Positions 20,964 through 47,768 of a stretch of DNA of 64,000 bases are shown piece by piece (the first letter of the stretch is position 1; each line of letters opens with the position of its first letter). The position numbers and the translations under genes are program-made. Where the stretch lies: positions 1,536,001 through 1,600,000 of the forward strand of contig CAVWCF010000001.1 of NCBI GenBank assembly GCA_963753435.1. The letters run 5' to 3'. The DNA comes from an uncultured Actinomycetota bacterium. GTDB taxonomy: Bacteria > Actinomycetota > Actinomycetes > CAVWCF01. The notes beneath the pieces were generated by a model. That model was not told the origin of the DNA, did not search any database, and worked only from the letters and a program-made list of their open reading frames with translations.

Positions 20964-23824
20964 GCGAGGCGGGTCTCCCCGCTCATCTCGATTACGCCTC
21001 GCGCGTCGCCCTCGGGGTGACGGGCGAGCGCAGCGTTGCCGGCTACCTACGCGCCGCCGGCGCGCGCGGCCGGGCCCGCGTCACGAGCCTGTCCCGATTG
21101 TCATTCGCTGATGCCGCACCCACCGCTGCGGTGGTCCTGCTCGTCAGTGCGGCGGCCGAAGACCTTGGTCTGTCCGCCGGTCAGGTGGTCACCGCGCTGC
21201 TGATCGGCGGCCTCGGGCTGGTCGCCGGCGCCATCCTCGGAATCAATGTCGCCGACAGCGGACGTCGGCTGAAGGTCGCTGTGGCCGTCGGCACCAACGC
21301 CGGCATCCTCGCCATCCTCATTGCCCAACTCAGCGCCTTCTGGCTGCTGGCGGTGCTGTTCGCCGCCCGCGGCGTGCTGCTCGGATACGGACAAGCCGTC
21401 CAACGCCCCCTGGTGATGGACGTCGTCCCGCCGGAGGCGCGCATCCGCGCCTTCGCCCGCTGGCGTGGCGCCGCGATCTTTGCCGCCGCAGCCGCCGCCG
21501 GATCGGCGGCGTTGGTGCTTTCCGGACCGCAGTGGTCCTGGAGCACCGTCGTCACCTTCCTCGGCGCCCTGGCGATCGTGCTGGGCCTGGCCGTCGCCTT
21601 CGTCGACGACCCCGGGGCCGGGGGCCTGGAGCAGGATCGACTGCGCCGCGTAGTCACCGAGGAGGGCGCTCCCTCGGCCGTCATCAACGGTGCCGGGGCC
21701 TCATTCGGGGTGCTGGCGCGCACCCCCGCCGCCCGGATCTCGCTGTCCAGTTACGTCGGAGTGGGCGCGGCGACGCTGGCCCCGCTGCCAGTGGGCTTCT
21801 CCGTGGCTCAGGAACGTGGCTACACCGCCGGCTCGGCCCTCCTCGGCCTGGCCCTGGCGTACCTGGTGGCCGCGGGAGTGGTCGTCTTCGCCGCAGACGG
21901 ACTGGACGCGCGGCGGCAGGCCGGATGGGACCGGCTGGCCAAGGTCGTCCCGGTGCTACTCGCGGTGGCCGCCGTGGGCGTGATCGTCGCCGCATCTGTC
22001 GCGTCCCCGATCGCCGTCATCGTCGGCGTCGGCGTGGCCGCGGCCGCCGCCGGGCTCACCGCTGCATCTCTGGACGGGGTTGCACTTTCGGCCGTCTGGG
22101 CTTCGGACCGGCCGGGGGTCAGCGGGTACAGCACCATCTCGACACTCGCCGGCGGGCTCCTGGGTCTGGCTCTCGCTTACTGGCTTGGTGGCCCGGGCGG
22201 CTTTGCCGCGGTCGGTCTGTTGATCGCCCTGACGGCCGGCTTGTCGCTGCGGCTACCCAAGGCAGCCGCCGAATCGTTCGTCGACTCCCTGCGCGCCCTC
22301 GGGCTCGCCTACGAGAAGGTCTACGGGCCCGCGCTGAACCGGGTCGGCCCGCCGGAGTGGGCGACCAACAGCGCCGGCTTCACCCCGCCCGGATACGGCT
22401 GGGGTCCCACCGCGCTACCTGGTGGTGCGGCCTGGGCCGCTCAGACAGCGGGCGGCGTCGGCTACGCGGCGCCCGGTTACGGGACGCCCACCTACGCCGA
22501 TCAGCCCGTCGGTGGCTACCCGAGCCCGACCGCACCGGGGGACTACCCGCTTTACGCACCAGTCGACGGCGGGCTGTCCGGTGCCGGTGTCGCCGGCGCC
22601 GGAGCCGCCGCGGGCGCCGCACTGTGGGCGTCCGGTTGGAGCACCGACGGCGCCGACGCCCTGAGCAGCCCCACGATCCCGGGTGAGGCCACCCCGGCCG
22701 AACCGGCGGCGTGGACCCCCGGCGACGACCTGACCCAGCCCGCTAGCGCCTACCTCGGCGGGGCCGCGAACGCCCCCGAGGAGCCGGCCGAACCGACCTA
22801 CGTCCAGCCACAGTCGTGGACCCCGGTGTGGGAGTTCCTCCCGGCCGCACCGCTGGCGCTTGCCGCCGCGCCGGCGTCTACCAACGGACACGCTGCCGAT
22901 GCCCTGTCCGCACCCGCGGCGTTCACCCAGCCGAGCGCCACTCCTCAGGCCGCAGCAGCCGCGCCAGCTGCGGCCGCAGCAGTGGCCGCTGTGGCCGCCA
23001 CCACCGTCACCGAGCCCGCCCCGGCCCCGGCCGGCGGCGTCCCGACGTTGCACCACCCGGCCAACGGCGGCGTCCACATCCTGGAGGGACGCGGCGTTTC
23101 CTACTCCTACGGCTCGGTGCAGGTGCTGTTCGACGTCAACCTCTACGTGCAGCGCGGCGAGCTGGTGGCCCTGCTCGGACCGAACGGCGTCGGCAAGACC
23201 ACGTTGCTGCGCGTGCTGTCCGGCTTGGCGCGAGCAGACGAGGGCCAGGTCATCCTCGACGGCCAGGACGTTTCCCGCGTCCCCGCGTCCAAGCGGGTCG
23301 CCATGGGCCTCAGCGAGATCGTCGGTGGCGAGGCCGTCTTCGGGTCCATGACGGTCGCGGAGAACCTGCGGATGTACGGGTTCAGCATGGCCAAGGACAA
23401 GCAGTCCGTGGACGCCGGCATCCAGGCCGCCTATGACCAGTTCCCGCGGCTGGCGGACCGCCGCAACCAACTCGCCAGCACCCTGTCCGGTGGCGAGAAG
23501 CAGATGCTCGGCCTGTCCAAGGCGCTGATCGTCAAGCCGCAGATCCTCATGGTCGACGAGTTCTCCCTCGGTCTGGCCCCGGTCATCGTCGGGGAGCTGA
23601 TGGGCCTGGTCCGTCGCCTCAACGCCGAAGGCACCGCGGTGCTCCTGGTGGAGCAGTCGGTCAACGTCGCACTGTCGCTGGTGCACCGCGCCTACTTCAT
23701 GGAGAAGGGGCGCCTGGTGTTCGAAGGGCTGGCTGAGGAGTTGCGCGGCCGCCCCGACCTGGTCGCGGAGATCACCCTCGGCGGGCACGCCGATGCGCTG
23801 GCGAGCGCGGAGGCGGCGGCATGA
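20960..23824 (+). CDS. MFS-like domain fused to LivF-type ABC ATPase
   Basis: About 12 TM helices, a long Pro/Ala/Gly-rich linker, then GPNGVGKT, LSGGEKQM, MVDE, VEQ. Confidence 0.8.
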   Translation: MSEAGLPAHLDYASRVALGVTGERSVAGYLRAAGARGRARVTSLSRLSFADAAPTAAVVLLVSAAAEDLGLSAGQVVTALLIGGLGLVAGAILGINVADSGRRLKVAVAVGTNAGILAILIAQLSAFWLLAVLFAARGVLLGYGQAVQRPLVMDVVPPEARIRAFARWRGAAIFAAAAAAGSAALVLSGPQWSWSTVVTFLGALAIVLGLAVAFVDDPGAGGLEQDRLRRVVTEEGAPSAVINGAGASFGVLARTPAARISLSSYVGVGAATLAPLPVGFSVAQERGYTAGSALLGLALAYLVAAGVVVFAADGLDARRQAGWDRLAKVVPVLLAVAAVGVIVAASVASPIAVIVGVGVAAAAAGLTAASLDGVALSAVWASDRPGVSGYSTISTLAGGLLGLALAYWLGGPGGFAAVGLLIALTAGLSLRLPKAAAESFVDSLRALGLAYEKVYGPALNRVGPPEWATNSAGFTPPGYGWGPTALPGGAAWAAQTAGGVGYAAPGYGTPTYADQPVGGYPSPTAPGDYPLYAPVDGGLSGAGVAGAGAAAGAALWASGWSTDGADALSSPTIPGEATPAEPAAWTPGDDLTQPASAYLGGAANAPEEPAEPTYVQPQSWTPVWEFLPAAPLALAAAPASTNGHAADALSAPAAFTQPSATPQAAAAAPAAAAAVAAVAATTVTEPAPAPAGGVPTLHHPANGGVHILEGRGVSYSYGSVQVLFDVNLYVQRGELVALLGPNGVGKTTLLRVLSGLARADEGQVILDGQDVSRVPASKRVAMGLSEIVGGEAVFGSMTVAENLRMYGFSMAKDKQSVDAGIQAAYDQFPRLADRRNQLASTLSGGEKQMLGLSKALIVKPQILMVDEFSLGLAPVIVGELMGLVRRLNAEGTAVLLVEQSVNVALSLVHRAYFMEKGRLVFEGLAEELRGRPDLVAEITLGGHADALASAEAAA

Positions 23825-26800
23825 ACACCGGGCTTGCGGCTGCCACCATCGCCGGCTTCGACCTGTCCGCCGGGCGGCTGCTGCTCGGCATCCTGAACGG
23901 TTTGATCTACGGGTTGCTCGCCGTCGGGCTGGTGCTGACCTACCGGGCCAGCCGGTTCATCAACTTCGCCTACGGCGGCATCGGCCTGTTCGGCGCGGCC
24001 ATCCTCGGTGTGACCGTGGGCAAGTTCGGCATCCCCTACTGGGTCGGCTTCGTCCTGGCACTGATCGCCGGTGCAGCGATCGCGGCGTTCACCGAAGCGG
24101 GGCTGGTCCGGCGGCTGGAGAAGGCGCCCCGCGTCCTCGGCACCATCGTCACGCTCGGCTTCGGCCAGTTCCTGGTGATCGTGGCGCTGCTGATCAACAA
24201 GGACAACTCCGGCGGCCGGTTCTTCCCGTCCCCGTCGGGGCTGCCGGAGTTCAAGGTCAGCGGGATCGTCATCTCCGCGCCCTTCGTGGCGATGCTCATC
24301 TTCACGCCGATCCTCATGGCCTCGCTGTCGGTGTTCCTCAAGCGCAGTCGCTACGGCCTGGCGATCCGCGCGGCCGCGGACAACCCCGATGCCGCGTCCC
24401 TGGCCGGTGTCACCGCATCGCGAATGGTCACGTTGTCGTGGGCCATCTCCGGCGGTATCGCGGCGTTCTCGGCCTCGCTGGTCCTGCCCACCCAGGGCAC
24501 GCCGTCGATCGAGACCATCGGCCCCACGCTGCTGCTGTTCGGTTTGGCCGGTGCGGTCATCGGTCGGCTGCAGAACATCCCGGTGGCGTTCCTGTCCAGC
24601 CTCGGCATCGGCGTGGTGGAGCAGGTCGTCCGCTCCAAGGACCCGACCAGTGGGCTGGCGGAGTTGGTGCTGGGTTCGATCATCATCCTGGCGCTGCTGC
24701 TGCAGCCGAAGCTGTCCACCCGGGTTGAGGTCAAGAGCGACTGGGCCCTCGTTACCCCGCGCCGACTGCCGAGCGCGTACCAGAAGGTGTTCCTGATCCG
24801 CTGGCTGCCGCGGTTGGCGCTGTACGGGGTGCTGGGCTACCTGGCCTACCTGGCGTTCGTGGTCAACAACGAGACCGCGTCCAAGCTGACCGTGTTCGTC
24901 GGCTACGCGATCATCGGCTTGTCCGTGCTGCTGGTCACCGGCCTCGGCGGACAGCTGTCGCTGGGCCAGGTGGCGTTCGCCAGCATCGGTGCGGTTGCCA
25001 GCGTCAAGGTCGCCGAAGCCACCGGCTACTTCGACCTGGCGCTGATCGCCGCCGCCTTCGTGGCCGCCGTGGTGGCGATCCTGGTCGGCATCCCGGCACT
25101 GCGGTTGTCCGGTCTGGCGTTGGCAGTGAGCACGCTGTCGTTCTCGCTGATAACCGCCACCTGGCTGTTGCGGCAGGACTGGGCCTTCGGCAACGGCGTC
25201 GACCCGTTGCGGCCGGTGATCGCCGGTCTGGGCTTCTTCAGCTCCAAGGGGTTCTACCTGTTCTCCGTTGGCGTGCTGGTGGTCGCGTTCTTCCTGGTGG
25301 GCAGCCTGCGCCGGTCCTCCTTCGGGCGGATCTCCATCGCGTTGCGTGACAACGAACAGGCCGCCCGCGCCTTCACCGTGCCGAGCAACCGCCGCCGGTT
25401 GCAGCTCTATGGCGCGGCCGGTGCCATCGCCGGCCTCGGTGGCGCGGTCATCGGCCACGGCCAGTCGAACCTGACGTTCGCGGCCTTCCCGGCCCAGGCG
25501 AACATCGACGTGGTCGCCGAAGCGGTTGTCGGTGGTCTGACCGTGCTGATCGGCCCGGTCCTGGGTGCTCTCTACATCGTGGGCCTGCCGTCGCTGCTGA
25601 GCCTGAGCACCATCGGGATCGCGATCCTGACGCTCGGCTGGCTGGTTCTGATCATCCTCATTCCGACTGGAATCGGCGGGGTGCTGCTGAACCTCTGGGG
25701 CAGCCTCGCCGATGGCATCGCCCGGCTGCGGGGGATCAACCCGGCGGTGGCGCGGGCGGCCGACGCCGGCGGCGCGCTGGAACGATCCGCAGAATCCCTG
25801 GACCTCACCCATTTCCGCCGCGCGGACCTGGCTCCGGCGGGGACCAACGGGTCGGGTCCCGCCGGTCAACCGGCCGCCGAGCAGATCCCCGGCGCCCCGA
25901 GCGCGGAGACCGTGGTCCCGGGCGGGCAGTGGATGCCGCCGTCGGCCCAGACCGGTCAGGCCCTGCCCATGGGCGTGGAGTACCCGCAGGTCTCGACCCA
26001 GCCGATGCCGCCGGTTGCCCAGCCGGTGCCGCAGCGCGCCGCCCCGGCAACGGTCCGCGAGGTGCAGTTGTCGGTGCGCAACATCAGCCGCTCCTTCGGC
26101 GGGGTGCGGGCCGTCGTCGACGTTTCGCTGGACGTCTACCGCGGCGAGATCCTCGGCATCATCGGCCCCAACGGTGCGGGCAAGACGACCTTCTTCGAGA
26201 TCCTCACCGGCTTCACCTCAGCCGATGCCGGCAACGTGGTCTTCGAGGGCCGCGACATCACCAAGTCCTCCCCGGAGCGGCGTGCCCGCGCGGGCCTGGT
26301 CCGGTCCTTCCAGTCCAGCGCCCTGTTCCCGACCCTCACCGTGCTGGAGACCGTGATGGTCGCCGAGGAGCGCACCGTCCCGACGGGGACGTTGGAGTCG
26401 GTGACGGGCATCAGCCGCAAGGAGGGCAAGCGGCGTGCGCGGTCAATGGAACTGCTGGACGTCATGGGGTTGCGCTCCCTGGCCTACCGGCAGGTGAGCG
26501 GGCTGTCCACCGGGCAGCGGCGCATGGTGGAACTGACCTGCATGCTGGCGCTGGAGCCGCGGACCCTGCTGCTGGACGAGCCGGCCGGTGGCCTGTCGAC
26601 GGCCGAGGGCGACCAACTCGTGGAGCTGTTCACTGCGATCCGACGCGACCTGGGCACGACGCTGGTAATCGTCGAGCACGACCTGCCGCTGCTGAACCGC
26701 ACCGTGGACCGCATGGTCGCCATGGAACTGGGCGCGATCATCGCCGTCGGCACCCCGGAGGAGGTGCGCAACCACCCCGATGTGGTCCGCTCCTACCTGG

Positions 26801-26850
26801 GCACCGAAGCCGCAGCGGTCGAGCGCAGCGGCTCCCTCACCCCCGCCTGA
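23821..26850 (+). CDS. LivH-LivM permease fused to LivG-type ATPase
   Basis: INFAYG, G.AIRA.ADN, GQLSLGQ, ALRDNE; GPNGAGKT, LSTGQRR, LLDEP, VEHD, V.RSYLG. Confidence 0.88.
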   Translation: MNTGLAAATIAGFDLSAGRLLLGILNGLIYGLLAVGLVLTYRASRFINFAYGGIGLFGAAILGVTVGKFGIPYWVGFVLALIAGAAIAAFTEAGLVRRLEKAPRVLGTIVTLGFGQFLVIVALLINKDNSGGRFFPSPSGLPEFKVSGIVISAPFVAMLIFTPILMASLSVFLKRSRYGLAIRAAADNPDAASLAGVTASRMVTLSWAISGGIAAFSASLVLPTQGTPSIETIGPTLLLFGLAGAVIGRLQNIPVAFLSSLGIGVVEQVVRSKDPTSGLAELVLGSIIILALLLQPKLSTRVEVKSDWALVTPRRLPSAYQKVFLIRWLPRLALYGVLGYLAYLAFVVNNETASKLTVFVGYAIIGLSVLLVTGLGGQLSLGQVAFASIGAVASVKVAEATGYFDLALIAAAFVAAVVAILVGIPALRLSGLALAVSTLSFSLITATWLLRQDWAFGNGVDPLRPVIAGLGFFSSKGFYLFSVGVLVVAFFLVGSLRRSSFGRISIALRDNEQAARAFTVPSNRRRLQLYGAAGAIAGLGGAVIGHGQSNLTFAAFPAQANIDVVAEAVVGGLTVLIGPVLGALYIVGLPSLLSLSTIGIAILTLGWLVLIILIPTGIGGVLLNLWGSLADGIARLRGINPAVARAADAGGALERSAESLDLTHFRRADLAPAGTNGSGPAGQPAAEQIPGAPSAETVVPGGQWMPPSAQTGQALPMGVEYPQVSTQPMPPVAQPVPQRAAPATVREVQLSVRNISRSFGGVRAVVDVSLDVYRGEILGIIGPNGAGKTTFFEILTGFTSADAGNVVFEGRDITKSSPERRARAGLVRSFQSSALFPTLTVLETVMVAEERTVPTGTLESVTGISRKEGKRRARSMELLDVMGLRSLAYRQVSGLSTGQRRMVELTCMLALEPRTLLLDEPAGGLSTAEGDQLVELFTAIRRDLGTTLVIVEHDLPLLNRTVDRMVAMELGAIIAVGTPEEVRNHPDVVRSYLGTEAAAVERSGSLTPA

Positions 26851-27860: not shown

Positions 27861-28607
27861 TCAGAACTCCTCGAACATCCGCCCGAAGCCGTACAACTTG
27901 TCCTGGATGCCGTTGTCGCGCAGGGCCATCCACCAGGTCGCCGCGTTGATCGCGATGACCGGCTTGTGCAGCCACCGCTCCGCCTCGGCGGCCAGGCGCA
28001 GCATCGACAGGTTGGTGCCGACCTGAACGAGCGCGTCCGGCTCGGTGCGGTCCAACTCCAGCAGTGACTCACGCAACTGGTCCTGGGTGGTGTGCGCGAT
28101 CGAAACCGCGGTCGGGCGCTTGAGCCCGATCAGCTTCGTCACGTCGAACCCGAGCTCGTTGAAGAACTTGATGACCTGCTCGTCGCCGTTGGGCTGGTAG
28201 GGGGTCACCACGCCGATGGTCTTGACCCCGAACTTGTGCAGGACGCGTTCGCAGGCCTCCGCACCGGTGGCAACGTCCAGGCCGCCGGAACGATCCTTGA
28301 TCCGCTGCTTGAACGCCTCGTTGCCGGCTTTGCCGTCCCAGAAGGTCTCCGCCGACATGCCCATGACCATGTAGTCGACCTCGGCCGTGCAAACACGGTC
28401 GATCGCGGAGTCGATCTCCTGGTCCAGCTGAACGCGCAGGTACTCCATCTGCGACTCAGAACTCAGGTCCTGGTCGCGGATGTGGATGCGGCTGAACAGC
28501 GGTGTCACACCGGGAACGCCCATCGCGTTGAAGTCCGGCTCCACGATGCTGTTGGTGCTCGGCGCCAAGACTCCGAACTTCTTGCGCCACGCCAACTGGT
28601 CGCCCAT
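27861..28607 (-). CDS. Maleate isomerase/arylmalonate decarboxylase (Asp/Glu racemase superfamily) homologue
   Basis: G.LAPSTN..VE, SRI, MGMSAETFW, VVTPY, QVGTNL, PVIAIN. Confidence 0.85.
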   Translation of the reverse strand: MGDQLAWRKKFGVLAPSTNSIVEPDFNAMGVPGVTPLFSRIHIRDQDLSSESQMEYLRVQLDQEIDSAIDRVCTAEVDYMVMGMSAETFWDGKAGNEAFKQRIKDRSGGLDVATGAEACERVLHKFGVKTIGVVTPYQPNGDEQVIKFFNELGFDVTKLIGLKRPTAVSIAHTTQDQLRESLLELDRTEPDALVQVGTNLSMLRLAAEAERWLHKPVIAINAATWWMALRDNGIQDKLYGFGRMFEEF

Positions 28608-29266
28608 CAGGTCCCCTCCATCACCAACTCAGAGGATGCGCGGACCTTCCGCCACACCCGCCACGCCCCGAACGCGAAAGCGCCTTGAGCGACGGTGTTC
28701 ACGCTCTGCTCCGTCCACTGCAGCGCGAGGGTCTGCTCCTCGAAACTCTGCAGCCGGGTCAGCACGAACACACCGGCCAACTGAACAGCGAAGGCCACAA
28801 CTGCGGCAGGGTCCTTGGTCCGTACTGCCCAGGTAATCGCGAGGATGGTCGTGGTGAGGCTGGCCAGGACGGCGATTCCAAACAGCGGGACGACGTCGCC
28901 GATGGCGAATGCGCCGATCGTCGCCACCGCCAGTACCGCGGCGAACGGCCACCAGGGCAGCAACTTCGAACGCAGCCCGGACCAGACCGCCCACGCCACC
29001 AACGTGAACCCGAAGGACAGCAGTGGGAACAGGAACTCGTCGATGATCGTGTCCGGCCCGCCGGACGCCACGATCAGCTTCCAGGTGGCCTTGGAGGCCC
29101 CGCCGGCCACCAACAGCACCACGCCCAGGTAGCCGACTCGGGCGACCTCGGGTACCCGGCTGATCGCCGTGCGCACGAGTAGCAGGCAGCCCAGTCCGCT
29201 CAGCAGGACGGGGACGTAGTCCTCCAGCGCCAGCGGGATCGTGTAGCCGTACGGATTCGCGTCCAT
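28607..29266 (-). CDS. Hypothetical membrane protein (~7 TM)
   Basis: Hydrophobic helices; 1-nt overlap with the downstream gene. Confidence 0.75.
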   Translation of the reverse strand: MDANPYGYTIPLALEDYVPVLLSGLGCLLLVRTAISRVPEVARVGYLGVVLLVAGGASKATWKLIVASGGPDTIIDEFLFPLLSFGFTLVAWAVWSGLRSKLLPWWPFAAVLAVATIGAFAIGDVVPLFGIAVLASLTTTILAITWAVRTKDPAAVVAFAVQLAGVFVLTRLQSFEEQTLALQWTEQSVNTVAQGAFAFGAWRVWRKVRASSELVMEGT

Positions 29267-29347: not shown

Positions 29348-30157
29348 TTACTGCGAGGAAGTGGGGACCTCGACGCCTTCGAACAGGTCGCGCTTCTTGA
29401 ACGCCGCCGTGGCGAACCGGCCGGCCGCCTTGGGGCCGGACAGCCAGGCCACCCGACCGCCGTTCTTGGTGCCCTTGAGCAGGCCATCGGCCAGCATCGG
29501 GGTCACCGTCTCGACCTTGTCGCCGAGGATGTTGAAGATGCGCTTGGCCTTCTCAAAGCCCTCCGGGTCATCGGCGTAGTCACCGACAAGCAGGTCGGTC
29601 ACCACGATCCCCGGGGACAAGTGGTGGATCGACACCGGGCCGCCGTCCAGCTCCTTGGCGACCGAGTTGGTGAAGTACGTCAACGCCCGCTTGGTCGAGC
29701 CGTAGGGGGCCAGCCCGTCGGCCTTCTGGCCGCCGGAGCCGAAGCCCTCCATGTTCCAGATGTCGCCGAAGCCCTGTTCCTTCATGCCCTTCAGCGCCAC
29801 GTGCGTGCCGTTCATGGCGCCGAGCAGGTTGATCCGCACGATCTTCTCGAAGTCGGCCGGGTCCGATTCCGCCAGCGGCTTGCGGGGCAGGCCGATGCCG
29901 GCGTTGTTCACCCAGGAGTCGACCTTGCCGAACGTCGCAACCGCGAAGTCCCACAGCGCCTGCTGGTCGGCGTAGGAGGACACCTCGCACGCCTTGCCGG
30001 CGACGTTCGGAGCCCCGCCGAGCTCAGCGACGACCTTGTCCACGGCCTCCTGCGAGCGGCCGGAGACGACCACCTGCGCGCCCCGCTTGAGCAGGTTCTG
30101 CGCGATGCCGTGGCCGATGCCGCGGGTGGAACCGGTGACGACGAAGACCTTGCTCAT
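29348..30157 (-). CDS. SDR resembling chlorophyll(ide) b reductase NOL/NYC1
   Basis: TGSTRGIG, WVNNAG, IWNMEGFGS, YGSTKRA, HHLSPGIVVTDLL, FNILGD. As I recall them, plant NOL motifs are IFN.DGAGS, YGATKR and HNLSPGMVTTDLL. Confidence 0.75.
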   Translation of the reverse strand: MSKVFVVTGSTRGIGHGIAQNLLKRGAQVVVSGRSQEAVDKVVAELGGAPNVAGKACEVSSYADQQALWDFAVATFGKVDSWVNNAGIGLPRKPLAESDPADFEKIVRINLLGAMNGTHVALKGMKEQGFGDIWNMEGFGSGGQKADGLAPYGSTKRALTYFTNSVAKELDGGPVSIHHLSPGIVVTDLLVGDYADDPEGFEKAKRIFNILGDKVETVTPMLADGLLKGTKNGGRVAWLSGPKAAGRFATAAFKKRDLFEGVEVPTSSQ

Positions 30158-30203
30158 GCGGCGTTCCCTTCGGTGAATCCGATCAGTGGCGCGATGCGCC
30201 GGT

Positions 30204-31175
30204 TCAGCCCTGCGGTTCCCAATTCAGCACACCGTGAATCACGTGGCGCAGGATGTTGCCCTCGAATGCCTGCCAGGTGACGGCGTACTGCTGGGTCTCC
30301 GGGTCCAGGAGGAACTCCCGGCCCTTGATCTTCCAGACGTCCGGGCCGGTGAAGTGCTGTGACACGTACAGCGCGCGGCCGTAGGCCTTGGCGTTGCCGA
30401 ACAGGTCCGGGCCCTCGTAGGTGGTGATGTTGGACCGGCGCGTGCGCTCGAAGGAGTAGCGGCGGCTCAGCAGCCCGTCCCAGGTGACCGTCTGGCGGTA
30501 GCGGGTCAGGTTGATCGGCTCATGAGCGATCTCGACCGAGATCGTGCCTTCCTGCTTCTGGTCGGCACCCCACACCTCAAGCTCGCCACGCCAGGAGCCA
30601 CGGTCCTTGGTCGGCAGCACCTGCGGGGTGTTGCCGATGCGCTTCTCCTTGTCGCAGAAGGCGTCGATGCGAGCCTTGGTCTCGGGGTTGGTCTCGTAGT
30701 CGTGGGCGACCAGGTAGATGCCGTTGAACACCGCGGCCACGGTCCAGCCGTCGGTGAGCACCGAGGAATACACCTGGGTCTCGCCGTCGGGGAGGATGTG
30801 GTTCCACGTCGTCAGGTCCGCCAGCCAACCGGTGGAGTAGTAGTGGCTGTCGACGAACGTGCCGTACGGCTGCCCGGTGCCGTAGAAGTCCGGGCCCATG
30901 TAGACGCGGTTGGAGTCGGAGTCGATGACGCCGAAGTCGAACTGTGCGCCCAACTCGAAACGGTTGCGGATGGGGCCAGTGACCTCGGACAGGTCGGTGC
31001 GCATCCAGTAGCGGGTCTCGCCGTTCTCGAACACCGAGGCGCGGGAGACGTTCTCGTAGCCGACGTGGTTGCCGTCAGGGTCGAAAACGCTCGGCCGCCC
31101 GTACCAGGATCCGGTGATCTTCTTCTGCCACTCCGACGGTTCCGGGGTCTCGGTGGTCTCCGGCGCTGCACTCAT
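30204..31175 (-). CDS. Hypothetical protein, probable tandem beta-barrel (FABP/lipocalin-like)
   Basis: Internal duplication: GSWYG...Y.GPDFYG.G..YG and GSWRG...YEGPDLFGNA..YG. Confidence 0.7.
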   Translation of the reverse strand: MSAAPETTETPEPSEWQKKITGSWYGRPSVFDPDGNHVGYENVSRASVFENGETRYWMRTDLSEVTGPIRNRFELGAQFDFGVIDSDSNRVYMGPDFYGTGQPYGTFVDSHYYSTGWLADLTTWNHILPDGETQVYSSVLTDGWTVAAVFNGIYLVAHDYETNPETKARIDAFCDKEKRIGNTPQVLPTKDRGSWRGELEVWGADQKQEGTISVEIAHEPINLTRYRQTVTWDGLLSRRYSFERTRRSNITTYEGPDLFGNAKAYGRALYVSQHFTGPDVWKIKGREFLLDPETQQYAVTWQAFEGNILRHVIHGVLNWEPQG

Positions 31176-31945
31176 GCTGATTGCTCCGTCAGTTCGTTCT
31201 TCTCAAGGTTGATGCGGTTCAACTCCGACGCCTCCGCGCCGACCAGCGGGATGATGTTGTTCCACACCGGGTCGACGTCGGCGTTGAAGATGAGGCCGCG
31301 GTTCTTCGCGTCGCGGTCCGGCAGGTCGGTGTCCGACACCTCGGCGAGCACCTCGTCCGACAGGCCGCCTTCGAGCAGGTTGAACCACTGGTCCAGGTAC
31401 GCGTTCACGTGCTCGTCCAGGTTGGCGTACGCCGTCGGCGTGGCCCGGTAGGCGCACATGTAGGGGCTCATGATGGAGCGCTGGCGTGGGTCGAGCTCGG
31501 CCTCGCTGATGCCCTCCATGGCCCGGACGGCCTTGTAGTTGGCCAGGATCGGCTCGTACACCTCGTCGATGTACTTCATGTGCGTGCCGATGTCGACGCG
31601 CGGGATGAAGTCCAGGTGGAAGGCGTGCGTGTCCAGGTCCAACCGCTCGACGGAGTCCAGCGTGAAGTGCGGGACGGCGGAGTCCGGCGCGGTGAACGCG
31701 AAGATCATGTGGCTGTCCAGGTCGATCACCCCGGGCACGGTGGCCTGGATGCCGGCGTAGACGACCTTCTTGACCGGTCCGTCGCCCATCCAGATCCGCA
31801 ACTCACCGACGGACTGACCGGATCGGCTGTTCACGAACGGAAGGAACGGTCCACCGTCTGCACCCTGCACCTCAGACACCTTGGACCGGCTCGTAAGCCG
31901 GTCCAAGGTTCGAAGGCAGAGCCCCTGCGCCAGGCGCTCGCCCAT
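31172..31945 (-). CDS. RCCR/ferredoxin-dependent bilin reductase-like protein
   Basis: S.VPHFTLD, FHLDFIPRVD, Y...Y, RSIMSP, YLDQW, RD..R; distant paralog of 34329-35141. Confidence 0.65.
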   Translation of the reverse strand: MGERLAQGLCLRTLDRLTSRSKVSEVQGADGGPFLPFVNSRSGQSVGELRIWMGDGPVKKVVYAGIQATVPGVIDLDSHMIFAFTAPDSAVPHFTLDSVERLDLDTHAFHLDFIPRVDIGTHMKYIDEVYEPILANYKAVRAMEGISEAELDPRQRSIMSPYMCAYRATPTAYANLDEHVNAYLDQWFNLLEGGLSDEVLAEVSDTDLPDRDAKNRGLIFNADVDPVWNNIIPLVGAEASELNRINLEKNELTEQSA

Positions 31946-31956
31946 GAAGTTCTCCT

Positions 31957-33222
31957 TTATGCCCCTGAGCCGACGCCCTCCGCGTCGTCCTCCGGAACAC
32001 TACCGAGTTCGGTTTGGCCGGCTGCGCCGAGGCCCTTGTGCTCGTCCTTCTCGAACTGGGCCGCGCCACCGTGCGACTTCTTGCTGCGGATCTTGGCGGA
32101 CTCGACCTCCTTGTGCACCCACGCGTTGGCCAACTCCGGGTTGTTGGTGCGCGCCGGGCTCGGGATGACCACAGCCAGGTCGCGGGGGCCGTCGCCGACG
32201 ATCTGGTGGGTGTCGATGCCCCAACCCTGGTCGATCAGCTGGTTGCGCCGACGCCGGTAAGCCACCTGCAGCGAGTCGGAGCGCACGTGCATCTCGTCGG
32301 ACAGGTCGTAGGGCAGCAACTCCGGACGCTGCAGGCTGATGACGTCGTCGTCCTGCTTGAAGATGTAGTGCACGCGCTTGATCGCGTCCTTGTCGGCCCA
32401 GTCGCCCTTGAGGAACGTGCGGCACGCGATGAACAGCGAACGGGTCTCCTTCTCCGAGACCGGGACGTTGGCGTCGATCAGCAGCATCGTGCCGAACGGC
32501 AGCGGCACCTGGAGGATGTTGATGTTCGGCAGGTAGAAGCCGGCCTTGGTCGGGATCTGCACCGGGGTGTCCACGTCCTCAACGGACTTGCGGAACAACT
32601 TGCCCCAGGCGCCCTTGGGCTGGCCCGGCGGCGGGTACAGCGGGATCGTCGCCAGGCCGGACCACTCCGTCAGCACGACGTCGAAGTCGCCGACCTCGGG
32701 CTTGTCCAGGTTGCCGAACCGGTTGCCGTGCACGAACGGTGCGTGGCTGGGGTCCATGGCGTTCTCAAGGGCGCGCTCGTAGTTGACCGGCCACCAGTAC
32801 TCGCCGTAGACCTTCTTGAACTGCGGGTCCTCCAGCTCCGGGATCTCCGGCAGCGGGTGCCGCTCGGACTCCGGCAGGTCGCCGAGGAACACGAAGACGA
32901 GGTTGTACTTCTCCTTGACCGGGTAGGAGTCGACGCGGGCCTTCTTCGGGATGCCGCGCTCGGGGTGCGCCGGGATCTTCTCGCAGTCGCCGTCGCCGTT
33001 GAACTCCCAGCCGTGGTACGGGCAGACGACGCACGAAGCGTCCTCGGACAGCCAGCCGCCGGCCAACGACCCACCGCGGTGCACGCACAGGTCGGAAAGG
33101 CAGTGGATCTCGCCCTTCTTGTCACGCCAGAGCACGAACTTCTGACCCAAGGCCTGCATCGACAGGGGCTTGGTGGTGACGTTGTGGCTGAACTCCACGG
33201 CGTACCACATGTTCTTCAGCAT
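31957..33222 (-). CDS. Rieske non-heme iron oxygenase
   Basis: N.WY, CVHRG...CPYHGW Rieske motif, ENAMDPSHAPFVH iron motif, C-terminal QDD. Confidence 0.92.
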   Translation of the reverse strand: MLKNMWYAVEFSHNVTTKPLSMQALGQKFVLWRDKKGEIHCLSDLCVHRGGSLAGGWLSEDASCVVCPYHGWEFNGDGDCEKIPAHPERGIPKKARVDSYPVKEKYNLVFVFLGDLPESERHPLPEIPELEDPQFKKVYGEYWWPVNYERALENAMDPSHAPFVHGNRFGNLDKPEVGDFDVVLTEWSGLATIPLYPPPGQPKGAWGKLFRKSVEDVDTPVQIPTKAGFYLPNINILQVPLPFGTMLLIDANVPVSEKETRSLFIACRTFLKGDWADKDAIKRVHYIFKQDDDVISLQRPELLPYDLSDEMHVRSDSLQVAYRRRRNQLIDQGWGIDTHQIVGDGPRDLAVVIPSPARTNNPELANAWVHKEVESAKIRSKKSHGGAAQFEKDEHKGLGAAGQTELGSVPEDDAEGVGSGA

Positions 33223-33274
33223 CGGTCTTTCCTCCTGTGGGGGCCGGTTGGGTCGGCCGGTCGTCGGTAAATGC

Positions 33275-34270
33275 TCACCCGGTTGCCGCCGGAGCGCGAC
33301 GGACCAAGGTCACTAGTTCGTCCCGGGTATCGGAACGCTGCACCAAGCGGGCTCCCGCGTCGGGGTCCTGCAGCACCGCATGGCGCAGGAAGTCGATCAT
33401 GAGGCCGGCCATGGATTCCCGCGCGGCGACCGGGTCGGCGATCGCCGCACCGTCCAGGAATCCGCGCGCGCACGTGGGGTCCTCGGGGTCGCCGGGAAGG
33501 AAGTGGTTGGAACCGGTGAAATCGCCCCACCAGGCCTCAACGTCCGGGGAGATCGCGTCGGCGAACGTCCGCTCGACCGGGTTCTGGCGCTCCTGGCCCT
33601 CCTGGCCGTAGCGAACCGCCGAGGCGGCCATGATCCCGTCCTCGGTCCCGGACATCAGCAGCACCGGTACGTCGACCGGGGAGGCCAGCAGCGCGCCAGG
33701 TTCGTAGCCGAGGACCGTCGCCGGCTGCGTGTGCGCACCGAACGTGGCGGCGGCCATCAGCTCGGGGAACCAGCGGCGGCTGGCCGACTGCAGCGTGATC
33801 GTGCCTCCGGCCGAATGGCCGAACAGCGCGACCCGGCCGGTGTCCAGGACATCAGGGAACGGCCCGGTGGCGTTCGCTTCGGCCACCGCGTCCAGGATCG
33901 AACGCAGGGCGCCGGCGGGCGGGCTTTGCCCGTAGGTGTCCGGCGTGATCGCACCCAGGTCGATGCCTGGGGAGATGCCGAACTGGCCGGGCATCAGATC
34001 GGTGACCAGGTCGAAGGTGACCGCGGCAAACCCGGACTCGACCAGCCGGATCGCCAGCCAGCGGTAGGCGTCCTGCCCGACATTCACCCCCGGCATGATC
34101 ACCACCACCGGGTACGGCGCGCCGGAGCGGTCCGCGGGGATGAACCCGCTCATCCGTTCCGCCAGCGAACCGGTGAACTGCGCGGGGTAGTAGATCTTCA
34201 GGTGCGCGGTGTCGAACGGCGCCGGTGCCCCGGGAACCCGGGTCGCCCACCAGAACGAGCGAACAGTCAC
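33275..34270 (-). CDS. Alpha/beta hydrolase, chlorophyllase/dienelactone hydrolase-like
   Basis: KIYYPA, PYPVVVIMPG, D..RVALFGHSAGG, PVLLMSG.ED, G.NH. Confidence 0.75.
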   Translation of the reverse strand: MTVRSFWWATRVPGAPAPFDTAHLKIYYPAQFTGSLAERMSGFIPADRSGAPYPVVVIMPGVNVGQDAYRWLAIRLVESGFAAVTFDLVTDLMPGQFGISPGIDLGAITPDTYGQSPPAGALRSILDAVAEANATGPFPDVLDTGRVALFGHSAGGTITLQSASRRWFPELMAAATFGAHTQPATVLGYEPGALLASPVDVPVLLMSGTEDGIMAASAVRYGQEGQERQNPVERTFADAISPDVEAWWGDFTGSNHFLPGDPEDPTCARGFLDGAAIADPVAARESMAGLMIDFLRHAVLQDPDAGARLVQRSDTRDELVTLVRRAPAATG

Positions 34271-34328
34271 TGGTGGGCTGACCTCCGTCGGTTGCGCAGT
34301 CCCGCGGGTGCGGGACCCATGCTCTGGT

Positions 34329-35141
34329 TCAGGCGCCGGCGTGGGGCAGCACGCGCTGCGACCCGGTGAGCGCCACAACCAGTTTGTCCACGATCTCCTT
34401 GCCGAACAGCCGCTCGCCCACGGAGTTGGCCGGGTCGAGCTCGGCGATCCGGCTACGCATGTCGATGGTGTGCTGCAGCATCGCCGGCTGCTCGTCGGCG
34501 GGCACCGGGTCGGCGTTGTCCCACCAGGACAACCACAGGTCCAGTTTGTCGCTGGCCTGCTTCATGATGATGTCGACGGTCTCCTGCGTCATGGGACCGG
34601 AGTAGCAGAAGGCGGTGGGGCTGGTGACCGCGCGGATGTAGGCCATCGGGCTGGTGAACCAGTCCAACTGCGGGTTGTTGCGGCGGGTCTCCAGCCACTC
34701 CTCGTTCTGGGACTCGAAGTACTTGAAGTGGTAGTCGGTGTTCGTGCACAGGTCCCGGCGGGGCAGGTGGTCGATGTACGCCCACGGCCGCGCGCCGAAG
34801 TTGGCGAACGCCATGCCGAAGAACGGGATGTCCGTCTGCGGTCCGGGGGAGATGGTCAGGTGCAGGTTCGCGAACCCACCCTTGGGGTCGGCCATCCAGG
34901 AGTAAACGAGCCAGTCGATCTCGGGGCCGGCGAAGCACTGCACCTGCCCGTGGATGCCGGAACCGATCTCGCCGGCGACCTCGAGGCCGTTGGTGGACGG
35001 GTCCTGCTTGAGCTCGAACCTTTCGTTGACCTTGGCCATGAGCTTGGCCAGTTCGTCGCGCCACTGCTCGTAGATCCAAGTGACGTCGATCGGGCCGGAC
35101 TCGTCGATGAGTTCCTGGACCGTGCTGAGCGTTTCGCCCAC
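34329..35141 (-). CDS. Red chlorophyll catabolite reductase (RCCR)-like protein
   Basis: IDWLVYSW, DHLPRRDL..N.DY..KYF, FTSPMAYIRAVTSPTA and RLFGKEIVDKLV parallel, in the same order, the plant RCCR motifs as recalled: IDFVIGSW, DLPHRKDLVLNPDYL, YVSPSLFVRSAFSPTA, RMFGEEV. Confidence 0.8.
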   Translation of the reverse strand: MGETLSTVQELIDESGPIDVTWIYEQWRDELAKLMAKVNERFELKQDPSTNGLEVAGEIGSGIHGQVQCFAGPEIDWLVYSWMADPKGGFANLHLTISPGPQTDIPFFGMAFANFGARPWAYIDHLPRRDLCTNTDYHFKYFESQNEEWLETRRNNPQLDWFTSPMAYIRAVTSPTAFCYSGPMTQETVDIIMKQASDKLDLWLSWWDNADPVPADEQPAMLQHTIDMRSRIAELDPANSVGERLFGKEIVDKLVVALTGSQRVLPHAGA

Positions 35142-36097: not shown

Positions 36098-37835
36098 TCA
36101 GTTGGTGATTGCGTCCATCAGTTGCCACGGACGGCCGTCGACCAGGTCGGTGCCGCGGGAGACCATGCGGTTGGTCGCTTGCGCGGGGGACACCTCCACC
36201 AGCGTGATCTCGGCGTTCGGGTCGACCAACACCGGGTCGGGACGGGAGATCACCCCGTTGAACGGCTCGGTGCGCTCGGTGGACCAGAGCGTGAACTCGC
36301 CACTGAGCGGGATCACCACGCTGGCACCGGCCGGACCGGGACGGGTCGCCGCGACCAGGTTCAGTCGATTCTCCGCAGCGCGCTCCACCAGACCGGTCCG
36401 TAGTTCCCAGGACTCCGCAACGCTGAACGGCAGCGCAACCACGTCGGCGTCCGCCAGCGCCGCCAGCCGGAACGTCTCCGGGTAGACCGCATCGTCACCG
36501 ACGACCAGCGCCAGGCGGCCCCACGGCAGCTCGACGATGTTCAGGCCGTCACCGAGGTCAGTGACCCAGCGGATGCCGGGCGACGGCATGCAACTGGCGT
36601 TGCCGGGCCACGATGCCGTCGGCACCGATGAGCACTGCCTCGTGCGCGGCGCCGGCGGGCAGGCTGGTGACCACGTGCGCCGAGCCCGCTACTGCCGCGA
36701 TGGCAGCAACGGCTGCGGCCGACCGGGCCTCGGCCGCGGCGGCGTCCACGTCCACAACGCCCCCGGCGAAGCAGAACAACTCCGGCAGCACGACCAGCTG
36801 AGCGCCGTCGGCGACCGCCTGCGCCACTGCCGTAGCGGCGGCGGGGATGGCGTCGGGTCCGTCGGCGGCGGGCTGAACCACGGCGGTGCGCAGCACCGGT
36901 GACCCCGCGGGAGCCTGCCGGCCCTTGGGGGCGTCGGCGAGCGCGGCGTACAACTCCGGCCGCCGGTTGGCGAACACGTCGGTGCCGTCCGGTCGGGTCT
37001 TGGCATCGGCGAGCGCGACGTCGATGTCGGCCACGACCACCGCCTCACCGGTCAGCGGCCCTTGGGCGACGACAGTGCCATCGGGGGCCACGATCTGGCT
37101 CTCCCCGGCACCGTGTAGCCGCTCCACCGGGACGCCGACACCGGTGCTGACCTGCTCGATGTTGCCCGGCGGGATCAGCGGGCCGACCTTGTTGGCCGCG
37201 ACGATCCAGACCCGGTTCTCCGGGGCGCGCACCGGGATGTGCAGGTTCGCCTCGTCCAGGGCGAAGGAGTTGAGGCTGTTCAGCAGCACCTGCGCGCCGC
37301 GCAGCGCCAGGCCGCGCGGGGTCTCGTTGATGACGCCGTCCATGCAGGAGTACATGCCGAAGCGCGCCAGTTCGGTCTCGACGATCGGACCGGTGCTGAT
37401 CGCGTCGTCCAGGTGCAGGCGCTCGCTGCCCATGAGGACCTGCTTGTCGGAGTCGGCGACGACGGCGCCTTGCGGACTGCACAGCACGTTGGTGCCGGTC
37501 GTGCGGCCGTCCTCGCGGGCGACCACCACGTTGACCATGACGTAGGCGGCGTGCTCCTTGGCCTTGGCGGCGATGGCGCCGACGAACGGCCCGTCGAGGG
37601 TCACGGCCATGCGCCGGGAGTGCTCGCGGTCGTCGTACCAGGACACGTGGTTGCAGAACTCCGGCAGGACGATCACCTGCGCGCCCTCGGCCGCGGCAGC
37701 GTCGATCATGCGCAGGCAGGTGGCGAGGTTCTCGTCAACGTCCGTGCCGACAGCGAACTGGACTGCGGCCACCCGTAGGTGGCCGTGCGCCGGCGTTTCG
37801 CCGTCGACGGAGCGCACCACCACCGGCTCGCTCAC
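36098..37835 (-). CDS. Two-domain carbon-nitrogen hydrolase (nitrilase superfamily), +1 frameshift near 36570
   Basis: Domain 1 has LPEF/DKQ/SCMDG (E-K-C triad). Domain 2 has LPEL/RQLH/VGDD and RAAENR. One extra C separates ARHP from WVTDLG. Confidence 0.82.
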
Positions 37836-38743
37836 GCGGCCGCCTTCGGGAAGTCCCCTGCCTTGCTGACCAGAGCGGGGGTTGGTCGGCCCATCACCTC
37901 GCCGAGCCAGTCGGAGGCTGCGATCAGCGCTTCCAGGTCCGTGCCGGTTTCGTAGCCGCTGCGGTGCAGCAGGTAGACGAGGTCCTCGGTGGCGATGTTG
38001 CCGGTGGCCTTGGGGGCGAACGGGCAACCGCCGATGCCGCCCAGGCTGGCGTCCAGGACCGTCACGCCGTTCTCCACTGCGGTCAAGGCGTTGGCGTAGC
38101 CGGTGTTGCGGGTGTTGTGGAAGTGGGCGCGCAGTTGCACGTCGCCGATCGCGGCCTTGACCGCGGTCACGCGTTCGCGAACGTCCGGCGGTACCGCGAC
38201 CCCGATGGTGTCCGCCAGCGCGATCTCGTCGACGCCGATGCCGGCGATGCGCTCGGCCATGGCAACGATCCGTGAAACCGGCACCTCGCCCTCGAAGGGG
38301 CAGCCGAAGGAAGCACCGATGGTCACCGACGTCTTCAGGCCGGCGGCGCGAGCCAAGGGCGCGATCTTCTCGACGCCGTCGATCGTCTCGTCGGAGGTCA
38401 TGTTCTGGTTCTTGCCTGCGAACGTGTCCGTGCTTACGACGACCAGGTTGATCTCGTCCACCCCGGTCGGCTGGGCGCGCACAAACCCGCGCTCGTTGAC
38501 CACCAGGCCGATGGCGGAGAAGCGGTCGCGGTCCGGTCGGGCCGCCAGTCCGGCCATGACTTCCTCGGCGTCGGCCATCTTCGGGACGGCCTTGGGGCTC
38601 ACGAACGAAGTGGCCTCTGCGCGCCGGATGCCGGCGTCGAAAGCGCGGTTGATCAGCTCGACCTTCTGCGCCGTCGTCAGGTCGGCGGGGTCGTTCTGCA
38701 GGCCGTCGCGCGCGGCGACCTCGACGATCTGAACGGCGGTCAT
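37832..38743 (-). CDS. Hydroxymethylglutaryl-CoA lyase family protein
   Basis: EV.ARDGLQN, SFVSPK.VP.MAD, LADTIG, HFHNTR, GGIGGCPFAP.ATGN. Confidence 0.92.
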   Translation of the reverse strand: MTAVQIVEVAARDGLQNDPADLTTAQKVELINRAFDAGIRRAEATSFVSPKAVPKMADAEEVMAGLAARPDRDRFSAIGLVVNERGFVRAQPTGVDEINLVVVSTDTFAGKNQNMTSDETIDGVEKIAPLARAAGLKTSVTIGASFGCPFEGEVPVSRIVAMAERIAGIGVDEIALADTIGVAVPPDVRERVTAVKAAIGDVQLRAHFHNTRNTGYANALTAVENGVTVLDASLGGIGGCPFAPKATGNIATEDLVYLLHRSGYETGTDLEALIAASDWLGEVMGRPTPALVSKAGDFPKAAA

Positions 38744-38854: not shown

Positions 38855-39136
38855 TTGATCACCCACGTCGTGCTGATGAAGTTCGCCGACTCTGCCAACG
38901 CCGCCGAGACCAAGAGCCGCTTGGAAGCGCTACCGGCGACGATCCCGCACATCAAGACGTTGCACGTCGGGCTCGATGTGATCCGCAGTGAGGTCTCCTT
39001 CGACCTGTGCCTGACCACGACCCACGACTCGGTTGAAGAGCTGAAGGCCTACCAGGGTCACCCCGATCACCTTGAGGTCGGCGCCTGGCTGCGCCCGTTG
39101 CTGGAAGCGCGCGCCACCGTCGACTACGAGTCCTGA
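38855..39136 (+). CDS. Dabb family stress-responsive alpha/beta barrel protein
   Basis: ITHVVLMKF, L...IP.I, Y..HPDH, VDY. Confidence 0.85.
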   Translation: MITHVVLMKFADSANAAETKSRLEALPATIPHIKTLHVGLDVIRSEVSFDLCLTTTHDSVEELKAYQGHPDHLEVGAWLRPLLEARATVDYES

Positions 39137-40590
39137 CCGGCGGTCTGGTCCTTCATCGGGATGGCGCCGGCCACTCCCACGTCGTGGGCGATGTCCTCGT
39201 CCGCGGCGTAGCGGTTCGGGATGATGCTCTTGCGCACGATCAGGCCGTAGATGGCGACGATGCCGGCCATGATGCCGAACAGAACGAACGGGGCGGCCGG
39301 TCGCCAGGCGTCGAACAGGATCCCGCCGACACCTAGCGCGATCATGATCCCCACCCCGCCGAACAGGGCGAACATGCCGATCACCGCGCCCCGGATCATC
39401 GGCGGCGCCTGTTCGGCAACGAGCACGTTGCTGGAGATGACTGCGCTCACCTGGCCCACGCCGATCAGCGCGGCGATTGCGAAGCCTTGGGCGCTGAACG
39501 GGTCGGAGATGGCCAAGGTGGCCGTGTAGCCGATCGCGGTGACCACCAGGGAGATGATCACGGCGTCCGTGCGGCCGATGCGGTCGGCGAGTATGCCCGT
39601 GACCGGTGCGGCCAGCAGCGCGGTGCCGTTGGCGACCGCCAGCAGGATCCCGGCCTTGGCCGTCGCCTCGCCGGTGGTCAGGCCGATGCTCTCGCCGTAC
39701 TGCTGCGCCCACAGGATCAGGAAGGCGCCCACCAGCGCCAGGTCGGCGCGAGCGACGAACGCTGCGGCGTAGGACAGGGAAAGGCCGGAGTCCTTGCCGG
39801 CCTTGAGGCCCTTGCCCACCAACTCGCGGATGGAGGGTTCGTCGGTCCGGGCGAACGCCTTGCCGCCGCGCAGCCCGACCCGCATGAGCACCGCTGTCAT
39901 GGCGGCCAGTCCCGCACCGACGAGGTACGTGGCGCGCAGCGCGGCGACCTCGCCGAGCCCGGCGCTCTCAAAGACGCTGGGGAGTTGCAGCAGCGCGGTG
40001 AACGTGATCAGTGCACCGATCCCGTTTGCGAAGCCCAGGATGCCGTTGGCCGTACCGCGCGTTTCGTCCCGCACGTAGTCGGTGACGATGGCGGTGATCA
40101 TCCCGGTGATGATGGCGATACCGATGCCGGCGACAGCCCGAGACGCGGTCAAGGACAAGACGTTGCCGACGAACGGGGTCAGCCCGATGCCGAGTGCGAT
40201 GAGGGCGTAGCCGAGAACCGCGACCGGGCGGCGCCCAACGCGGTCGGACCACGCGCCGGAAACCGCGACGACAACGATGAGGATGATCTCGCCCACCAGG
40301 CCGAGCAGGCCGGTGATGCGGCCTTGCTCGTCCTCGGGGATCTCCAGGATTGTCGTCAGCAGCCCGGCCTGCAGCGCGGGGACGAGCGTGAACAGCATGA
40401 TCGACGACAACGCCAGCCAGTAGTACGTGGCGACGTTGCCGCGAGTGGTGCCGCGGGTCAGCTTCAGTGGACCGAACTTCGGTGCGACCGCAGTGGCCGT
40501 ACCGCCGGTGCCCCCGTCGGCGGCGGGCGCCGATGCGTCCGGTTTGTCGCTAGCGGGTGGCTCGCCGCCACCTGCGCTGTGTCGTCCCAC
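39124..40590 (-). CDS. MFS transporter
   Basis: 12 TMs; G.WSDRVGRR and LADRIGR motif A. Confidence 0.9.
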   Translation of the reverse strand: MGRHSAGGGEPPASDKPDASAPAADGGTGGTATAVAPKFGPLKLTRGTTRGNVATYYWLALSSIMLFTLVPALQAGLLTTILEIPEDEQGRITGLLGLVGEIILIVVVAVSGAWSDRVGRRPVAVLGYALIALGIGLTPFVGNVLSLTASRAVAGIGIAIITGMITAIVTDYVRDETRGTANGILGFANGIGALITFTALLQLPSVFESAGLGEVAALRATYLVGAGLAAMTAVLMRVGLRGGKAFARTDEPSIRELVGKGLKAGKDSGLSLSYAAAFVARADLALVGAFLILWAQQYGESIGLTTGEATAKAGILLAVANGTALLAAPVTGILADRIGRTDAVIISLVVTAIGYTATLAISDPFSAQGFAIAALIGVGQVSAVISSNVLVAEQAPPMIRGAVIGMFALFGGVGIMIALGVGGILFDAWRPAAPFVLFGIMAGIVAIYGLIVRKSIIPNRYAADEDIAHDVGVAGAIPMKDQTAGQDS

Positions 40591-40663
40591 GCTGTCCCCC
40601 TCGGATCCAGTTGCGACAGTCTGCCGTGCTGGCAACTGACGCGCTCGCCGAACCCCCTTCTCG

Positions 40664-42232: not shown

Positions 42233-42267
42233 CACGCCTCCTGTTTTCCGCGCCGCTGCTGAGCTGA

Positions 42268-47759: not shown

Positions 47760-47768
47760 GTCTGCTCC

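Follow-up and report, generated by a model that had tools for sequence, protein, structure and literature searches.

Chlorophyll is made and degraded at a rate of about 10^12 kg each year (PMC7318184), and no bacterial genes for consuming its breakdown products were found described in the literature searched. Whether such genes exist is the question raised by a 64,000-nucleotide stretch of DNA from an uncultured Actinomycetota bacterium (GenBank assembly GCA_963753435.1, contig CAVWCF010000001.1, positions 1,536,001 to 1,600,000; the window, in whose own numbering positions are given). Six genes at 29348..35141 had been interpreted, in a sequence-only reading, as an operon of homologues of plant chlorophyll-breakdown enzymes (two RCCR-like proteins, a chlorophyllase-like hydrolase, a Rieske oxygenase and a NOL-like short-chain dehydrogenase/reductase, SDR) with no known characterised bacterial counterpart; literature searches, weak on subscription journals, likewise found no description of one. 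The analysis reported here indicates that the cluster is real, widely conserved and apparently undescribed, that it is likely a system of tetrapyrrole catabolism and that, on balance, it would take up and mineralise chlorophyll-derived pigments (pheophytin, pheophorbide and ring-opened forms).

All six open reading frames (ORFs) lie on the minus strand at the coordinates and in the order originally given, each in a frame biased for GC at third codon positions. From 5′ to 3′ they encode an RCCR/bilin-reductase-fold protein, here type A (270 aa; 34329..35141); an α/β hydrolase (331 aa; 33275..34270); a Rieske non-heme iron oxygenase of VanA_C type (31957..33222); a second RCCR/bilin-reductase-fold protein, type B (257 aa; 31172..31945); a duplicated β-barrel (30204..31175); and a classical SDR (29348..30157). 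They are as closely spaced as first described, with gaps of 58, 52, 11, −4 and 46 nt and preceding Shine-Dalgarno-like purine runs; one detail changes, the hydrolase start, which is most likely the GTG at 34270 in place of 34378. A promoter scan found 0 sites against 0.8 expected, and terminators were at chance level. Contigs from 4 of 14 listed RNA-library runs cover parts of the core at 97–99% identity, one of them spanning the junction between type B and the barrel; because a control stretch is likewise covered, under a stricter threshold, these contigs indicate the presence of close strains and not induction or co-transcription. The host genome (2.17 Mb, 98% complete) gave no match to photosynthetic reaction centres, PaO or heme oxygenase in searches with positive controls. 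A rhodopsin search, made without a positive control, gave no match.

The case for a tetrapyrrole substrate begins with type A. It scores 46.8 bits against PF06405 (RCC_reductase; gathering cut-off 24.9), its best PDB sequence match is Arabidopsis RCCR (E 4.8e-6; 3.3e-16 in a profile search), and RCCR is its nearest characterised family by sequence. Its structural model (predicted local distance difference test, pLDDT, 89.6) has the α/β/α sandwich fold and superimposes on RCCR 2ZXK with Z 22.6 and a root-mean-square deviation (rmsd) of 3.1 over 236 residues; RCCR ranks first by Foldseek E-value. All 45 solved entries matching the model at Z of at least 12 belong to three families, the bilin reductases, RCCR and coproporphyrinogen oxidase, which are described as tetrapyrrole-binding (PMC13193486); the match after these falls to Z 5.0.

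Type B is more divergent. It reaches 19.1 bits against PF06405, under the gathering cut-off, and 14 of 36 homologues match that family at E ≤ 0.01; RCCR is the top hit of its profile search but a weak one (E 0.016), and comparison of the two profiles joins it to type A (97.6%, E 2.6e-12 over 223 columns). On these profiles type B is a second, divergent subfamily of the RCCR fold. The fold assignment stands for type A by its model and for type B by profile comparison, and the profile and structural comparisons with plant RCCR proposed alongside the original claim come out in its favour for type A. A predicted complex of the Rieske protein with type B (score 0.01, mark 0.32) is used neither way.

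Residues were mapped onto plant RCCR 3AGB by adding 43 to the chain position, an offset checked at the F218V site. Of Glu154 and Asp291, which we take to be the catalytic acids of the plant enzyme, the second is kept in both bacterial types, as Asp236 in type A (invariant in 24/24) and Asp225 in type B (invariant in 36/36), and the first is matched in type B by an invariant Asp97. His94 is also invariant in type A and is a possible counterpart of His88 in PcyA, which PMC10151467 gives as a catalytic residue.

Five RCCR-fold genes occur in the host genome, three of them outside the cluster. A third gene related to type A (host contig C2:126917-127774) sits beside glutamine synthetase and lacks both the acid at the Glu154 position and His94; its subclade takes in a 493-member cluster with one member named Woeseia. 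At host contig C1:1302701-1304344 a 547 aa protein combines an NAD(P)-binding Rossmann domain with a type B RCCR-fold domain, and a PNPOx/flavin-reductase-like gene comes next; this fusion, also found in two other genomes, may be supplied by NAD(P)H and work without ferredoxin. At C1:808492-810215 a Rieske paralogue that has lost the [2Fe-2S] domain and kept VanA_C overlaps a divergent type B gene, a pair that recurs in one genome bearing the Rossmann fusion. A plasmid search with type A gave no match.

The second line of evidence is conservation. Candidate stretches in GTDB genomes numbered 359, and a type A relative is encoded in 348 of them; among the best 80, the exact six-gene order is kept in 71, and the Rieske gene is present in 77, type B in 76, the hydrolase in 76 and the SDR in 75. 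Because these loci are, by record title, actinobacterial, many from Nocardia, they are not independent. A metagenome scan with type B yielded 181 relatives and 80 loci, of which the 27 of at least 10 kb were used for counts: 7/27 have the exact order, the Rieske gene adjoins type B in 22/27, and several are rearranged with the same gene set. The core genes stay together in rearranged loci, one of which carries two TonB-dependent receptors. The core arrangement is not chance. The closest named locus to that of the window belongs to a Candidatus Nanopelagicales metagenome-assembled genome (MAG), and type B occurs in 3 of 40 relatives, both same-family genomes among them. Temperatibacter marinus and a Chloroflexi MAG are among the named sources of type A relatives, and the cluster is present in cultured Actinoplanes, Nonomuraea, Actinomadura and Streptomyces strains.

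Among the other core proteins, the hydrolase has a Ser153-Asp211-His256 triad, invariant in 18/18 homologues, and passes PF12740 (32 bits, cut-off 28), a family that we take to have once been named Chlorophyllase2; PETases head its PDB list, it gives no match to chlorophyllase PF07224, and its homologues match chlorophyllase (10/18, best E 8.4e-8), dienelactone hydrolase (DLH; 10/18) and PAF-AH (9/18) weakly. The iron ligands of the Rieske protein, Cys46/His48/Cys67/His70 and His160/His165/Asp291, are invariant in 24/24 members, and its best PDB matches are SxtDiox, SxtT, NdmA and DdmC. The duplicated β-barrel described earlier is confirmed by its model (pLDDT 88), which matches DUF3598 (2O62; Z 19.5, 249 residues, rmsd 4.2) and chloroplast BFA1 (5YVF; Z 18.8), although at 7–11% identity; its internal repeat is weak by profile (E 2e-4), and it matches no Pfam family at E ≤ 0.05, with an atlas lead of 0.87 only. 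Since BFA1 is an ATP synthase assembly factor, the barrel fold gives no function; its halves resemble nitrobindin (heme-binding; Z 13) and the bilin lyase CpeS (Z 11). The SDR may resemble NOL/NYC1 in its motifs; close relatives are named from Halioglobus, Anaerolineales and Woeseiaceae, and in 36/36 long matches the relative is fused to an MFS transporter.

The conserved unit exceeds the six genes first recognised, forming a cluster of about 20 genes that runs from 27861, downstream, to 49058, upstream; the core was found correctly, but the sequence-only reading missed the putative genes of downstream pyrrole degradation, and it is these that most strongly support a catabolic function. Downstream of the SDR, on the minus strand, are a hydrophobic, probably membrane protein of no family (28607..29266; 44/80 GTDB loci) and a protein of the arylmalonate decarboxylase (AMDase)/maleate isomerase superfamily (27861..28607; PF17645 54 bits; family in 75/80). 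Upstream on the same strand follow a tandem carbon-nitrogen hydrolase of amidase/nitrilase type (36098..37793; 73/80), a C–C lyase of the HMG-CoA lyase family (37832..38743; NF004283 297.8 bits, cut-off 246), an aldehyde dehydrogenase (ALDH; 40790..42340), a second AMDase-like protein 47% identical to the first (42268..43011), a family III CoA-transferase (43016..44332), a second ALDH (44369..45940), a conserved 202 aa protein of no family (45862..46470; 8/27 long metagenome loci), for which no kinship to the double barrel was found, an acyl-CoA-dehydrogenase (ACAD)-fold flavoprotein (46484..47760; 60/80), possibly a two-component flavin monooxygenase, and a flavin reductase fused to an HMGL-like domain (47769..49058; the same fusion in two other loci). 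Neighbours in the GTDB loci also include ALDH (69/80), FAD monooxygenase (63/80), flavin reductase (29/80) and CitE-type lyase (29/80), although for ALDH and other broad families some of the proteins counted may not be orthologues; a hydrolase with a signal-peptide-like start is present in 49/80, and neocarzinostatin-like anchored proteins occur in 34/80. The long metagenome loci add isochorismatase (12/27), cyclic amidohydrolase (9/27), an isocitrate-lyase-family lyase (7/27), and LeuC/DmdA-type (6/27) and LeuD-type (5/27) hydratases. In the host, relatives of isochorismatase, FAD monooxygenase, amidohydrolase and CitE sit outside the cluster. Taken together, the flanking activities suggest that pyrrole rings are broken down completely, by the opening of pyrrole-derived lactams or imides and the splitting of substituted maleates. 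The recorded breakdown products of heme and chlorophyll include hematinic acid and two maleimides, methyl-ethyl and methyl-vinyl (PMC7318184).

Two of these genes are interrupted in the window, with frame changes near 36570 and 47180. In relatives the tandem carbon-nitrogen hydrolase is a single ORF of about 565–580 aa, and the ACAD-fold gene is also a single ORF; because one RNA-library contig has one base fewer at 47181, both frame changes are probably assembly indels. A role of the AMDase-like genes as maleate isomerases was considered and dropped, both window paralogues lacking both catalytic cysteines; across the alignment the second site is Cys in 5/11 rows and the first in none. Decarboxylation is one possibility for these proteins. 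The host has three such cysteine-less paralogues (27861-28607, 42268-43011 and contig C1:294997-295776), across which the active-site loops are highly conserved.

These genes can be arranged into a route from pigment to central metabolites. Substrate would enter through ABC, MFS or TonB-dependent systems, a secreted hydrolase perhaps helping in soil actinomycetes; the α/β hydrolase would remove an ester (phytyl, or the methyl ester of ring E), the SDR would reduce a formyl group, and the Rieske protein, although of another subfamily than plant PAO, would like it cleave a meso bridge and so open the macrocycle. Types A and B might then reduce different double bonds of the opened tetrapyrrole, with the double barrel as its putative holder; flavin oxygenases would cut it to single pyrroles and aldehyde dehydrogenases would oxidise the formyl ends. 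Amidases could open the lactam or imide rings with release of ammonia, and hydratases, the CoA-transferase and C–C lyases would split the substituted maleate-type skeletons. The presence of an esterase together with a ring-type oxygenase and a carbonyl reductase would suit a closed, esterified chlorin, whereas a free bilin would require none of them.

Several observations weigh against chlorophyll as the source. Type A lacks an acid equivalent to Glu154, with an invariant Ala111 at that position. Its model scores higher against PebB (Z 24.6) and HY2 (23.6) than against RCCR (22.6), and since all 45 matching entries are tetrapyrrole enzymes and these two outscore RCCR, the fold says tetrapyrrole, not chlorophyll. 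The hydrolase, chlorophyllase-like in the sequence-only reading and with its triad indeed intact, is as close to PETase, PAF-AH and DLH as to chlorophyllase. The Rieske protein had been likened to pheophorbide a oxygenase; its ligands agree, but all 24 members match VanA_C and none matches PaO PF08417 at E ≤ 0.1, and its solved relatives are demethylases and hydroxylases. The Mg-dechelatase SGR was not found in six genomes, in a search without a positive control, nor a ferredoxin motif among selected ORFs of 121 loci of at least 4 kb. The AMDase-like proteins are without the maleate-isomerase cysteines, and amidase, isochorismatase and lyase genes also serve pathways for pyridine and other N-heterocycles. 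The cluster is rare: in a sample of 400 other genomes of the phylum, 2 carry it. The phrase "four plant chlorophyll-breakdown homologues" is thus firm for the RCCR fold only and loose for the rest; of the dedicated chlorophyll or tetrapyrrole pathway proposed at the outset, a conserved unit in non-photosynthetic bacteria with catabolic surroundings stands, and membership of the PaO and chlorophyllase families is not supported.

An alternative is a cluster that degrades tetrapyrroles of other origin than chlorophyll, such as phycobilins released from phycobiliproteins, biliverdin or metal-free porphyrins, with the Rieske protein cutting or hydroxylating a linear bilin or porphyrin. Besides the structural ranking of PebB and HY2, the DP motif of types A and B is closer to those enzymes than to plant RCCR, one barrel half resembles CpeS, and the lower pathway would be identical whatever the source of the pyrroles. 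That substrate is nonetheless rather unlikely: sequence profiles favour RCCR (46.8 bits) over the bilin-reductase family (28 bits, below the PF05996 cut-off), an esterase would be superfluous for a free bilin, no family of heme oxygenase or heme uptake was seen among the annotated neighbours in a non-exhaustive scan, and heme oxygenase was not found in 4/6 cluster-bearing genomes. It is likewise doubtful that the RCCR-fold proteins have been recruited to something other than a tetrapyrrole, an N-heterocyclic alkaloid or another aromatic compound, so that the likeness to plants would be a coincidence of common families. Rieske, SDR and α/β hydrolase proteins are indeed common in aromatic catabolism, the solved Rieske relatives act on saxitoxin, caffeine and dicamba, one catalytic acid is missing from type A and both from a third paralogue in the host genome, and structure-function links in the family are described as poorly predictable (PMC13193486); yet the structural matches that have been characterised all have tetrapyrrole substrates, and two subfamilies are retained side by side with invariant pocket residues. 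It is very improbable that the core serves to make a pigment or to render one harmless, as in the quenching of phototoxic pheophorbide, with no use as food and with a separate pathway in the flanking genes, since, although plant RCCR is a detoxifying enzyme (PMC9306834) and several lower-pathway genes lie elsewhere in the host genome, carbon-nitrogen hydrolase, ALDH, ACAD-fold and AMDase-like genes accompany the core in 60 to 75 of the 80 loci, through rearrangements, and importers flank it.

Among the closest known systems is the plant PAO/phyllobilin pathway (NYC1/NOL, PPH/CLH, PAO and RCCR; AtRCCR 2ZXL, 3AGA, 3AGB), with which the cluster shares an RCCR-fold reductase, a Rieske protein, a serine hydrolase and an SDR as one set. 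Unlike that pathway it has two reductase subfamilies in place of one and a VanA-type in place of a PaO-type Rieske protein, its hosts are non-photosynthetic and, as far as the uncontrolled search goes, without SGR, and it comes with importers and a putative lower pathway for pyrrole degradation, where plants go no further than phyllobilins. With the bilin reductases (PebA, PebB, HY2, PcyA, PebS) and the pre-PcyA proteins of heterotrophic bacteria (PMC10151467) it has in common the fold (Z 21–25) and the DP motif, and its tandem reductase pair recalls PebA/PebB; in contrast to theirs, its loci showed neither heme oxygenase nor ferredoxin, and its neighbours are catabolic and not biosynthetic. 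For the lower pathway, nicotinate catabolism offers a parallel in its routes through maleamate and dimethylmaleate (NicF, NicE; DmdAB, dimethylmalate lyase). Related loci share with them an isochorismatase-family amidase, a LeuCD/DmdAB-type hydratase and an isocitrate-lyase-family lyase; the differences are that the AMDase-like proteins are without the isomerase cysteines, that the lower genes are patchy and that the upstream enzymes are unrelated.

The relation of the two reductases to plant RCCR was approached with trees of 85, 40 and 27 rows, built by a quick method from near-full-length relatives and locus proteins, fragments excluded, with Schekmanbacteria-like rows as outgroup in place of true bilin reductases. 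Type B forms its own clade, and type A groups with streptophyte RCCR in the best trees (support 94–96; 96 in the best 27-row tree). Approximately unbiased tests rejected neither a grouping of plant RCCR with type B (p 0.49) nor one of types A and B (p 0.48), a further point on the unfavourable side, and for this reason the grouping of type A with plant RCCR is suggestive only. The cluster reductases may mark the bacterial pool that gave rise to plant RCCR. RCCR orthologues are reported to be apparently absent from chlorophytes (PMC9306834); in contrast, proteins of Chlorella vulgaris (29.2 bits) and Coccomyxa elongata (25.2 bits) pass the RCC_reductase cut-off. Published work (PMC10151467, PMC13193486, PMC9306834, PMC8621299, PMC7318184, PMC10060970) covers plant RCCR, bacterial SGR homologues, pre-PcyA and sequences from Schekmanbacteria that fall between the bilin reductases and RCCR; no description of this cluster was found there, and the RCCR outgroup of PMC10151467 may already include such bacterial sequences.

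It is an even call whether bacterial mineralisation of tetrapyrroles derived from chlorophyll has here its first gene cluster, with an independently recruited ring-opening Rieske protein, two new RCCR-fold subfamilies acting in sequence and a lower pathway from pyrroles to central metabolism, spread over actinobacteria of soils, fresh water and estuaries and over some other phyla. What would be new is the pathway taken whole, provided that its substrate is a tetrapyrrole, which we consider likely; the single enzymes belong to known superfamilies. If the reading is true, genes of the cluster could serve as markers of pigment turnover in soils and waters, the bilin-reductase fold would gain two new enzyme subfamilies, and there would be a clue to where plant RCCR came from; because the cluster occurs in cultured strains the question is directly testable.

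Transport genes and lineage-specific features complete the locus. A branched-chain-type ABC importer (19571..26850, plus strand), convergent with the cluster and neighbouring it in close relatives too, is inferred to be linked to it as a candidate uptake system; within it, 19571-23824 is a single ORF of 1417 aa in which a lipoprotein-like binding domain is combined with an MFS domain and an ABC ATPase, either as a genuine fusion or through an error of assembly. An MFS transporter is encoded at 39124..40635 (minus strand; close relatives in 5/27 long metagenome loci) and a Dabb α/β barrel protein at 38855..39136 (plus strand; 43/80 GTDB loci). Between the nitrilase and type A genes, a PlsC-like acyltransferase gene (35287-35982), found in 0/80 GTDB loci, is a lineage-specific insertion. 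Eight loci insert GntR, DUF3891 and three family-less proteins before the core, some of them without type A in the stretch examined; one of the three family-less proteins is weakly related to the double barrel, and for the other two no kinship was found. A record titled Bifidobacterium breve has a locus layout nearly identical to that of an unclassified actinobacterial MAG and is probably a mislabelled bin.

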